From NCBI RefSeq assembly GCF_003334335.1, contig NZ_QOWQ01000068.1: a DNA stretch of 8,688 nt; one strand, 5' to 3'. The first letter of the stretch is position 1. Every line of letters starts with the position of its first letter. The notes under the pieces are model-generated. The model made no database searches. It was not told the origin of the DNA and worked only from the letters and a program-made list of their open reading frames with translations. Shown piece by piece: positions 5,701 to 6,413 of this stretch. Both the position numbers and the translations under genes were made by a program. This DNA comes from Escherichia coli. GTDB taxonomy: Bacteria; Pseudomonadota; Gammaproteobacteria; Enterobacterales; Enterobacteriaceae.

Positions 5701-5916
5701 ATGAAATCCATGGATAAGTTAACAACGGGTGTCGCCTATGGCACCTCAGCAGGTAGTGCCGGTTACTGGTTTTTACAGCTGCTCGATAAAGTCACGCCCT
5801 CACAGTGGGCAGCAATAGGTGTGCTGGGTAGCCTGGTATTTGGCCTGCTGACGTACCTGACAAACCTTTATTTCAAGATTAAAGAAGATAAGCGCAAGGC
5901 TGCGAGAGGTGAATAA
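5701..5916 (+). CDS. essD: Class II holin / pinholin, S21-like (71 aa) with a dual-start motif
   Basis: ATG at 5701 after GAGGTGGGG. Begins MKSMDK (Met1 and Met4, as in the antiholin/holin pair of phage 21 S). Two hydrophobic segments. Stop TAA overlaps the rrrD ATG (TAATG). Confidence 0.9.
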
Positions 5917-6413
5917 TGCCTCCATCATTACGAAAAGCCGTTGCTGCTGCTATTGGTGGCGGAGCAATTGCTATAGCATCAGTGTTAATTACTGGCCCAA
6001 GTGGTAACGATGGTCTGGAAGGTGTCAGCTACGTACCATACAAAGATATCGTTGGCGTATGGACTGTATGTCACGGACACACCGGAAAAGACATCATGCT
6101 CGGTAAAACGTATACCAAAGCAGAATGCAAAGCACTCTTGAATAAAGACCTTGCCACTGTCGCCAGACAAATTAACCCGTACATCAAAGTCGATATACCG
6201 GAAACAACGCGCGGCGCTCTTTACTCATTCGTTTACAACGTGGGTGCTGGCAATTTCAGAACATCGACGCTTCTTCGCAAAATAAACCAGGGCGATATCA
6301 AAGGCGCATGTGATCAGCTACGTCGCTGGACATATGCTGGCGGTAAGCAATGGAAAGGTCTCATGACTCGTCGTGAGATTGAGCGTGAAATCTGTTTGTG
6401 GGGTCAGCAATGA
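5916..6413 (+). CDS. rrrD: SAR (signal-anchor-release) endolysin, R21-like lysozyme (165 aa)
   Basis: N-terminal Gly/Ala-rich weakly hydrophobic segment [20 protein letters not shown] typical of a SAR domain. By my count from the translation, Glu35, Asp44 and Thr50 are at the positions of the R21 catalytic triad. Confidence 0.9.

Follow-up and report, generated by a model that had tools for sequence, protein, structure and literature searches.

A probably intact phage 21-type lysis cassette in a defective lambdoid prophage of Escherichia coli

The pinholin/SAR-endolysin paradigm is phage 21, and structures have been solved for its endolysin R21 (3HDE, 3HDF) and for the homologous RrrD of Escherichia coli K-12 (4ZPU). 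In phage 21 S, residues D2 and K3 (S68 numbering) time the exit of TMD1 and the aromatic patch YWFLQW stabilises the pores (bioRxiv 10.1101/2021.04.20.440580), and a role has been described for the extra N-terminal charge of the long form (PMC9636201). Glu35 of R21 is a catalytic residue that is displaced in the full-length structure (PMC6024848), and the triad has been defined as the motif E-x8-D-x5-T (PMC9239132). The K-12 counterpart, essD-rrrD(ybcS)-rzpD-rzoD (b0554-b0556, b4510), lies in the DLP12 prophage, and lysis, biofilm, vesicle and regulation data have been published for it. Carried on a plasmid, this cassette, near-identical to the one described here, lowered overnight OD about 5-fold and released DNA; when over-expressed it lyses cells, and the homologue in K-12 is transcribed, with strains deleted for it differing in vesicle production (PMC7918800). 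Control of the K-12 cassette by a Q-like factor, RpoE and Hha has also been reported. Similar lysis genes are found in the viable lambdoid phages ev207, ev243 and 434B, which are complete, with immunity, replication and morphogenesis genes. Phage 434B obtained the segment ylcG'-quuD-nmpC::IS5-5'S from K-12 DLP12, and this combination of Q, promoter and S therefore works in a phage.

Here we describe the lysis genes of an 8,688-nucleotide stretch of E. coli DNA (contig NZ_QOWQ01000068.1), referred to as the window. Judged from its sequence, the region from 5701 to 6871 is very probably an intact pinholin/SAR-endolysin/two-component spanin cassette of the phage 21 type, situated within a defective lambdoid prophage (Table 1). 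The first-pass annotation had assigned a phage 21-type pinholin and a SAR endolysin to 5701-6413, which is exactly the span from the holin start to the endolysin stop; the cassette itself continues through the two spanin genes.

Table 1. Predicted features of the lysis cassette and its control region, in window positions
Feature	Coordinates	Strand	Basis
quuD, Q-type late-gene antiterminator, 127 aa	3459..3842	+	PF06530 Phage_antitermQ E=4e-53, full length
Candidate sigma-E-type promoter GAACTA-N16-TCACT	5130..5156	+	pattern search; ends 6 nt before inferred K-12 start ~5162
Candidate late promoter pR' (-35 TTTACG, 16-nt spacer, -10 TATGCT)	5482..5509	+	aligns with putative pR' of 933W, SC370
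Candidate tR' intrinsic terminator, 8-bp stem AAACCCGC/GCGGGTTT, 6-nt loop, T-run	5540..5572	+	terminator scan
Tandem Shine-Dalgarno GAGGT + GGGGT, one per S start	5690..5699	+	434B annotated RBS positions
Lysis cassette	5701-6871	+	S, R, Rz, Rz1
essD/S long form, 71 aa from Met1, antipinholin	5701..5916	+	71/71 identical to K-12 EssD, 434B S, ev207 S; curated 'antiholin'
essD/S short form, 68 aa from Met4, pinholin (class II holin)	5710..5916	+	two uncharged segments; curated 'holin class II'
rrrD/R, SAR endolysin, GH24 lysozyme, 165 aa	5916..6413	+	PF00959 E=1e-45; 163/165 to R21 and RrrD
rzpD/Rz, i-spanin, 153 aa	6410..6871	+	PHROG 13 'Rz-like spanin' E=1e-78
rzoD/Rz1, o-spanin lipoprotein, 60 aa, embedded in Rz +1 frame	6630..6812	+	PHROG 3198 E=4e-30

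The resemblance to phage 21 S and R is no chance match by the profile and structure searches, because the holin matches PF04971 'Bacteriophage P21 holin S' (E=2.2e-35, residues 5-67), the endolysin matches PF00959 (Table 1), and residues 1-165 of the endolysin match 4ZPU (RrrD, E=1e-111) and 3HDE (R21, E=4e-111). The window resembles phage 21 in gene order, in the MKSMDK dual start, in the SAR and E35/D44/T50 of the endolysin, and in the gene overlaps, the holin stop and endolysin start sharing one base (TAATG) and the Rz start overlapping the R stop (ATGA). Homology to phage 21 sets in at window 5700, precisely with the start codon of S. Alignment with the curated phage 21 genome (OL657228), which had been proposed as a check, gave 61/71 identical residues for S and 163/165 for R, with the triad in register. 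The earlier suggestion that the cassette looks functional rather than decayed is borne out at the coding level, where the S gene has 0/216 nucleotide differences from that of viable ev207 and the endolysin has a dN/dS of 0.04-0.06, indicative of purifying selection in a comparison made with phage copies. Frameshifts, internal stops or truncations affect other genes of the element, while each of Q, S, R, Rz and Rz1 remains intact. Among NCBIfam models, none naming a holin or a spanin was matched, and the endolysin matched only unrelated equivalogs, far under their cut-offs.

The MKSMDK start with its Met1/Met4 pair, reported in the first pass, is read as ATG AAA TCC ATG GAT AAG at 5701-5718, and the reading frame closes with TAA at 5914-5916. 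This M1-K2-S3-M4 arrangement, with a Shine-Dalgarno sequence for each start, would yield a longer antiholin whose N-terminus has one more positive charge. In the curated genomes of phage 21 and 434B, antiholin S71 and class II holin S68 are assigned to these two starts; 434B, whose sequence is identical here, labels its ribosome binding sites 'for S71 antiholin product' and 'for S68 product'. The RNA fold predicted around the two starts does not exceed shuffled sequence in stability (z=+0.27) and gives no computational support for a structure setting the S71:S68 ratio. Besides PF04971, PHROG 9876 and PHROG 20 ('holin') match the protein. It has two predicted hydrophobic segments of the S21-family kind, the first weaker (uncharged stretch 7-28, 55% G/A/S/T, mean hydropathy 0.7) and the second stronger (uncharged stretch 31-58, mean hydropathy 1.15; best 19-residue window 36-54, 1.72). 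Phage 21 S differs from the window holin by L7I, T8S, V11I, L27W, K30Q, T32S, F47L, L49F, K61R and K64R (window to 21), the two genes having 38.5 synonymous and 12.5 non-synonymous differences, as under purifying selection; M1, K2, M4, D5, K6, G40, S44 and G48 are all retained. These include the timing residues D5 and K6 as well as G40xxxS44xxxG48, which we take to be the motif on the TMD2 face of S21. The window has L27 where S21 has W27, which closes the aromatic patch. Among deposited phages, 41 records contain this holin protein at 99% identity or above, and it is identical to that of cdtI as well as those of ev207, 434B and about 40 other phage records. The L27 allele is nevertheless used by many phages.

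The SAR segment and the Glu35/Asp44/Thr50 triad claimed for the endolysin are both present. The expression E.{8}D.{5}T has one match only, from residue 35, and near the N-terminus there is a single long uncharged stretch, residues 8-31, 15/24 (62%) of them G/A/S/T, preceded by R6 and K7 and identical to the SAR segment of R21. Cysteines occur at 52, 71, 132 and 160, with none in residues 1-51 and hence none in the SAR. A lysozyme-family protein with this triad and a basic-flanked SAR free of cysteine is predicted to be an R21-type SAR endolysin, and the protein is 98.8% identical to each of the two crystallised proteins, R21 (3HDE) and K-12 RrrD (4ZPU). One substitution, I40V, is lineage-specific; it is conservative and lies inside the E35-D44 loop. 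V40 is absent from every record in the phage collection (best match 99.4%), and all other residues match R21 or RrrD.

The spanin genes have the predicted features of an embedded two-component system, namely an i-spanin with a transmembrane domain, a lipoprotein in the +1 frame, and periplasmic cysteines. Rz is identical to phage 21 Rz at 149/153 residues and to ev207 Rz at 152/153, with an N-terminal TMD at 4-24 and cysteines at 14, 99 and 152. Rz1 is identical to phage 21 Rz1 (60/60 aa, 0/183 nt differences), has a lipobox ending in Cys20, and carries a further Cys29. In lambda, spanin cysteines form disulfide-linked dimers. In the matching RefSeq genomes examined, PGAP leaves the intact Rz1 unannotated.

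The element that hosts these genes is a prophage remnant of about 20 kb without immunity, replication and virion genes, in which respect it differs from the complete phages ev207, ev243 and 434B with which it shares the late module; the block rusA-ylcG-Q-porin-S-R-Rz-bor is colinear with ev207 at 94.6%. Because the repressor/immunity, replication and virion genes are lost, no phage would be produced, and the loss of the immunity and replication region means that classical induction cannot trigger lysis, which would instead depend on QuuD or host promoters. In strains A14 and CM2010-0578/1, ybhC lies on one side of the 100%-matching element and ybhB/bioA on the other, which is the lambda attachment site, whereas K-12 DLP12 sits at argU (564-586 kb) with intD. 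The D-suffixed gene names given in the first pass imply DLP12 at argU; the genes are orthologous to those of K-12 DLP12, but they occupy another locus. Between ybcN and ylcI the gene order agrees with that of K-12, and nucleotide identity is about 96%. Unlike the window, K-12 carries an IS5 within its porin gene and lacks 16 bp of the essD leader; its Rz has a GTG start and six substitutions relative to the window, its Rz1 has R34 rather than P34, and it carries emrE-ybcK-ybcL-ybcM in place of two lipoprotein genes of the window. PADLOC defence-system models returned nothing for these two lipoprotein genes, which lie upstream. Many strains carry the 8.7-kb window at 100% identity, and hosts from different continents have this remnant with identical deletion junctions. 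Of 5,426 complete E. coli genomes, 3,587 contain 80% or more of the cassette.

The phage 21-type reading holds for the lysis genes and does not extend to the Q/late-promoter module, in which Q and the candidate sites are of the 933W type. Phage 21 carries Q21, a pR' of its own and two tRNA genes upstream of S; in the window, their place is taken by a porin gene together with a Q and a candidate pR'/tR' of the 933W type. QuuD is identical to K-12 QuuD and 434B Q (127/127), and is 78% identical to 933W Q versus only 29% to Q21. Window positions 5482-5572 align with the late promoter and terminator of 933W, and 5481-5563 with the pR' and terminator of 933W and SC370, which are annotated 'putative' there. 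A Q-dependent late operon of this type has a Q gene, a constitutive late promoter close to a pause/Q-binding region, and an intrinsic terminator ahead of the late genes; of these, the window has a full-length Q, and its candidate promoter and terminator come from this homology and a consensus scan. In common with 933W and other Stx phages, the window has TTTACG at the -35 of the candidate promoter, the same spacing, TAAGAGTGGTTAC as the initial transcribed sequence and the first of the terminator hairpins; in the alignment, TTTACG is conserved in 933W and SC370, whose -10 is TATCAT, and TAAGAGTGGTTAC downstream of the candidate pR' is invariant. The pR' block is also invariant among the window, K-12 and ev207. 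The candidate tR' hairpin is also present in the centroid fold and lines up with the terminator annotated as tR'/rho-independent in 933W and SC370. The arrangement differs from that of Stx phages, where pR' directly follows Q and is itself followed by tRNA and stx genes: in the window an oppositely oriented porin gene lies between Q and pR', the pR' homology sits downstream of that gene, and S begins 130 nt past the terminator.

Two other elements were considered in this region and rejected. A pR' directly after quuD (3843-4030) was discarded, that stretch having instead hairpins which are the minus-strand terminators of the porin gene. A StxS-like small RNA is unsupported because homology to the Stx phages ends after the first hairpin and covers about 83 nt, whereas the StxS transcript has 258 nt. 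ARAGORN found no tRNA in the window, whereas phages 21 and 933W have tRNA genes between Q and S, and an Rfam search of the whole window at a permissive E-value gave no match.

A further start may lie upstream of the candidate late promoter. In the published '-121 to +650' amplicon of the SRRz promoter, the forward primer corresponds to 5041-5060, which by arithmetic from the amplicon places the K-12 +1 near 5162, next to the sigma-E-type sequence found by pattern search (Table 1). This block is invariant in K-12 and ev207, and published K-12 work would suggest a sigma-E-type start for the window too. The reverse primer of the amplicon had no match within 3 mismatches, its printed sequence being apparently short of bases compared with essD.

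The mechanism of lysis has been established for phage 21 (PMC9636201, PMC12642591, PMC9239132, PMC6024848, bioRxiv 10.1101/2021.04.20.440580), and we infer that it operates here from the near-identity of the proteins. Transcription would be expected from the 933W-type late promoter and would halt at the tR' hairpin unless QuuD modifies RNA polymerase; a second, sigma-E-type start would lie about 540 nt upstream of S. Of the two S products, S68 (Met4) would be the pinholin and S71 (Met1) a transient inhibitor, because its extra Lys2 would keep the N-terminus in the cytoplasm. Each with two transmembrane helices in an N-in/C-in topology, both would build up in the inner membrane until the weakly hydrophobic TMD1 exits the bilayer and TMD2 oligomers form nanometre-scale pinholes that collapse the membrane potential. 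Pinholin lesions of the S21 family are small, about 2 nm and heptameric, and would depolarise the membrane without letting soluble endolysin through. The endolysin would be exported by Sec and stay inactive while tethered by its Gly/Ala-rich SAR helix; once this is freed, by depolarisation or by slow spontaneous leakage, the enzyme would refold, Glu35 would join Asp44 and Thr50 in the active site, and peptidoglycan would be cut. Rz in the inner membrane and the lipoprotein Rz1 in the outer membrane would then fuse the two membranes. In the remnant, the cassette would be left only as a host-controlled, normally near-silent module for autolysis or envelope remodelling.

Other identities for the cassette were weighed against these data. 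Database records often label such genes plainly as 'holin protein S' and 'lysozyme R', and the spanin genes closely resemble the lambda ones, as would be seen if the system were of the lambda type, with a large-hole class I holin of three TMDs and a soluble cytoplasmic endolysin; this is scarcely credible for a PF04971 member with two hydrophobic segments rather than three, paired with a GH24 endolysin that has an N-terminal SAR and differs from R21 at two residues, and S21 is reported unable to complement lambda S (PMC9636201). An endolysin of the P1 Lyz kind, in which an inactivating disulfide is isomerised by a cysteine of the SAR, is extremely improbable. Both are SAR lysozymes, 1XJT/1XJU are distant PDB matches (E about 1e-8), and P1 Lyz and Mu gp22 share with the window endolysin a weakly hydrophobic N-terminal SAR and E-x8-D-x5-T (PMC9239132), but the two are only distantly related to it in sequence, the SAR cysteine of P1 Lyz is absent from it, and it is near-identical to R21, for which displacement of Glu35 is the noted feature (PMC6024848). 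It is also very unlikely that a phage 21-type cassette has been subtly inactivated, either by V40 in the catalytic loop or by holin differences from S21 such as W27L. V40 is not found in any phage record and W27 belongs to the patch reported to stabilise S21 pores, but the change from I to V is conservative, the remaining endolysin residues match R21 or RrrD, and the holin is that of ev207, 434B, cdtI and some 40 other phage records.

A separate question, compatible with the identification of the cassette, is its biological role. That the genes are intact but form a silent relic without host function, inactivated so recently that there has been too little time for decay, is quite possible, though not the outcome we would expect. 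The 100% identity of the window across many strains implies a young lineage, the low dN/dS was measured against phage copies and could stem from selection in the phage phase, the immunity region that normally drives Q expression is deleted, and a terminator-like hairpin precedes S. In addition, Hha toxicity was unchanged in K-12 essD and ybcS single mutants, where the essD holin is identical to that of the window, so any physiological role is putative. Against a silent relic, the remnant and its deletion junctions have been kept in hosts from different continents, other genes of the element are broken while Q, S, R, Rz and Rz1 are intact, and the K-12 homologue is transcribed and affects vesicle production when deleted (PMC7918800). 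We also consider a more specific proposal, which at present appears rather unlikely: that the remnant, with its identical deletion junctions, has been kept in unrelated hosts because the cell adopted the cassette as a device for envelope-stress-controlled peptidoglycan turnover, vesicle formation or sacrificial lysis under sigma-E and QuuD control, and that V40 and the undeleted 16-bp leader would give an output unlike that of K-12 DLP12.

As a phage 21-type lysis cassette, the locus is ordinary, having been characterised already in E. coli K-12 and phage 21, and it matters little beyond correct annotation. Its added value is modest and lies in a widespread copy at the lambda attachment site rather than argU, in the combination of 21-type lysis genes with a 933W-type control module, and in an intact o-spanin gene that is missed in the matching RefSeq annotations examined. 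Since the K-12 copy has the 16-bp leader deletion and the IS5, expression data from K-12 may not transfer exactly to natural isolates.

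The segment at 5701-6413, which the first-pass annotation had read as a phage-21-type pinholin followed by a signal-anchor-release (SAR) endolysin, is precisely genes 1-2 of a four-gene lysis cassette (Table), and all four proteins fall into lysis families (PHROGs). Both that observation and its interpretation are correct. S matches the Pfam family 'Bacteriophage P21 holin S' (PF04971, E=2e-35) and R matches PF00959 (E=1e-45), with full-length PDB matches of R to K-12 RrrD (4ZPU, E=1e-111) and phage 21 R (3HDE, E=4e-111); the SAR-less R21 fragment 3HDF matches from residue 27. 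The alignment proposed earlier as a check, run against phage 21 (OL657228), gave 61/71 identical residues for S and 163/165 for R, with 149/153 for Rz and 60/60 for Rz1; the corresponding values against both K-12 DLP12 and phage 434B are 71/71, 163/165, 147/153, and 59/60. S, R, Rz, Rz1, and Q are free of frameshifts and premature stops and their substitutions are mostly synonymous, and on sequence grounds the cassette appears functional rather than decayed, as had been proposed. The bor-type gene follows the spanins on the opposite strand, likewise in lambda, phage 21, and 434B.

Features of the lysis region and host element (window positions unless marked L001)
Feature	Position	Strand	Description
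Lipoprotein genes, predicted, overlapping	769-1329, 1326-1778	+	186 and 150 aa; second Gly/Ala-rich
quuD (QuuD, Q-type antiterminator)	3459-3842	+	full-length PF06530
Porin gene (nmpC/lc type, annotated ompC)	4031-5113	-	intact; between Q and S/pR'
Candidate pR' -35	5482-5487		TTTACG; conserved with 933W (alignment)
Candidate pR' -10	5504-5509		TATGCT; 933W has TATCAT
Candidate tR'	5540-5561		hairpin, T-run to 5572; matches annotated terminator
S (essD, holin)	5701-5916	+	71 codons, opens ATG AAA TCC ATG GAT AAG; TAA at 5914-5916 (ORF list and raw sequence)
R (rrrD, endolysin)	5916-6413	+	165 codons; TGA at 6411-6413; TAATG overlap with S
Rz (rzpD)	6410-6871	+	start overlaps R end (ATGA)
Rz1 (rzoD, o-spanin)	6630-6812	+	60 codons, embedded in another frame; intact
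bor-type serum-resistance lipoprotein gene	6903-7196	-	directly after spanins
Element order	L001 15541-32485		ybhC, int ... tfa, ybhB-bioA

The dual start claimed for the holin is present (M1-K2-S3-M4-D5-K6), and two Shine-Dalgarno-like pentamers, GAGGT and GGGGT at 5690-5699, lie at the positions where the curated 434B record marks ribosome binding sites 'for S71 antiholin product' and 'for S68 product'. The protein has two uncharged segments, residues 7-28 (weakly hydrophobic, 55% G/A/S/T) and 31-58, and a basic C-terminal tail. At the nucleotide level its gene is the same as in the viable phage ev207, and 41 phage records contain the protein at ≥99% identity. Relative to S21 there are 38.5 synonymous (dS saturated) and 12.5 non-synonymous differences, and, apart from W27L and Q30K (phage 21 to window), the residue changes are conservative. 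In S21, W27 ends the aromatic patch YWFLQW, reported in a preprint to stabilize S21 pores (bioRxiv 10.1101/2021.04.20.440580); the L27 allele is carried by many phages.

The endolysin likewise bears out the predicted triad, with E, D, and T at residues 35, 44, and 50; E-x8-D-x5-T, the canonical lysozyme triad motif (PMC9239132), is found once in the protein. Residues 8-31, following R6 and K7, are uncharged, 62% Gly/Ala/Ser/Thr, and cysteine-free, which fits the description of a SAR segment (PMC9239132, PMC12642591); such a cysteine-free SAR favors control of the R21 type over that of P1 Lyz. For R, dN/dS is 0.04-0.06 in comparisons with phage 21, K-12, and ev207, and V40 is the sole R residue found in none of the comparators (I there). 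The exact protein was not found among phage records, where the top match reaches 99.4%. A single residue separates Rz from ev207 Rz, and the Rz1 gene is nucleotide-identical to that of phage 21; of the cassette genes, S lies nearest the ev207/DLP12 type and Rz/Rz1 nearest phage 21. Rz1 is absent from the PGAP annotation of matching genomes.

By analogy with phage 21, on the basis of identity (PMC9636201, PMC6024848, PMC12642591, bioRxiv 10.1101/2021.04.20.440580), S68 (from Met4, pinholin) and S71 (from Met1, antiholin) would accumulate in the inner membrane, with exit of TMD1 retarded by the extra Lys2 of S71 and by K6. Once TMD1 left the bilayer, TMD2 would build heptameric pinholes of about 2 nm and the membrane would be depolarized. 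The endolysin, exported beforehand and tethered by its SAR helix, would then be released and refold to its active form; the structure of full-length R21 shows Glu35 away from its usual catalytic position (PMC6024848). Rz and Rz1 would disrupt the outer membrane last.

Phage 21 similarity spans 5700-7253; its abrupt start at 5700, one base ahead of the S start codon, marks a sharp mosaic boundary, so that the region upstream is not of the 21 type. QuuD matches K-12 QuuD without a difference and shares 78% identity with 933W Q and 29% with Q21. Among the window, K-12, and ev207 there is almost no variation in the noncoding block 5480-5620, within which 5481-5563 is homologous to the putative pR' and tR' (late promoter and terminator) segment annotated in 933W and SC370, with about 77-78% identity to the post-Q region of several hundred Stx phage records. 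The initial transcribed sequence TAAGAGTGGTTAC is invariant in the 933W/SC370 alignment, and the 5540-5572 hairpin was also returned by an independent terminator scan and is present in the centroid fold. Homology stops after this first hairpin, and the 258-nt StxS small RNA described for Stx phages is not conserved. Besides pR' and tR', we infer a second transcription start: a published K-12 promoter fragment is described as '-121 to +650' (PMC7918800) and its forward primer maps to 5041-5060, which would place +1 near 5162. A sigma-E-like GAACTA-N16-TCACT at 5130-5156, six bases before this putative +1, would agree with reported RpoE control.

The porin scores 518 bits, above the 484-bit NCBIfam OmpC subfamily cut-off, and its gene is intact in the window whereas those of K-12 and 434B are IS5-interrupted. 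GC-rich hairpins lie at 3876-3893 (minus strand, followed there by a T-run) and 3963-4007, between the quuD and porin stops; they look like terminators shielding quuD from porin-gene transcription.

Chromosomes of many E. coli strains match the entire window at 100% identity. In A14 (opossum, Mexico) and CM2010-0578/1 (chicken, Australia) the element is flanked by ybhC and ybhB/bioA, and integration is thus at the lambda attachment site, compared with argU for K-12 DLP12. The remnant measures about 20 kb. In it a truncated recT/bet (1-163; 98% identity to phage 21 bet) runs straight into a truncated ren (159-258), and this junction, at ~159-163, removes all of the immunity and replication region. 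A second fusion joins a truncated gene for the large terminase to a truncated tail gene; both strains share these junctions. With these losses the element can neither form virions nor undergo repressor-mediated induction. The lipoprotein pair, named hypothetical or 'YajG family lipoprotein' in RefSeq, had no NCBIfam or PADLOC match and stands where K-12 DLP12 has emrE-ybcK-ybcL-ybcM. Of 5,426 complete E. coli genomes, 3,587 carry 80% or more of the 1,171-bp cassette.

Carried on pACYC184, the K-12 cassette, which is nearly identical, caused a drop in overnight OD of about 5-fold and a release of DNA to the medium; the authors describe the K-12 operon as conserved and transcribed, with RpoE, Hha, and a Q-type antiterminator controlling it (PMC7918800). 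rzpD is reported to be involved in Hha-linked lysis, a setting in which essD and ybcS single mutants were without effect (PMC2408971). Phage 434B adds to this support: according to its record notes, it is a 434 derivative that took from K-12 DLP12 the segment ylcG'-quuD-nmpC::IS5 together with the beginning of S, so that the DLP12 Q, promoter, and holin are functional in a phage.

The cassette is a textbook system, its structure and genetics already characterized, and the prophage remnant that carries it is very common. The corrections are that the element occupies the lambda attachment site rather than argU, that late control is 933W-type rather than 21-type, and that Rz1 is intact yet unannotated. 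Several features set the window copy apart from the K-12 laboratory copy. The K-12 DLP12 essD leader lacks the 16 bp CTGCTTTTTTGCGATA (window 5641-5656) that the window and ev207 retain, so that expression results published for K-12 may not hold exactly for natural copies.
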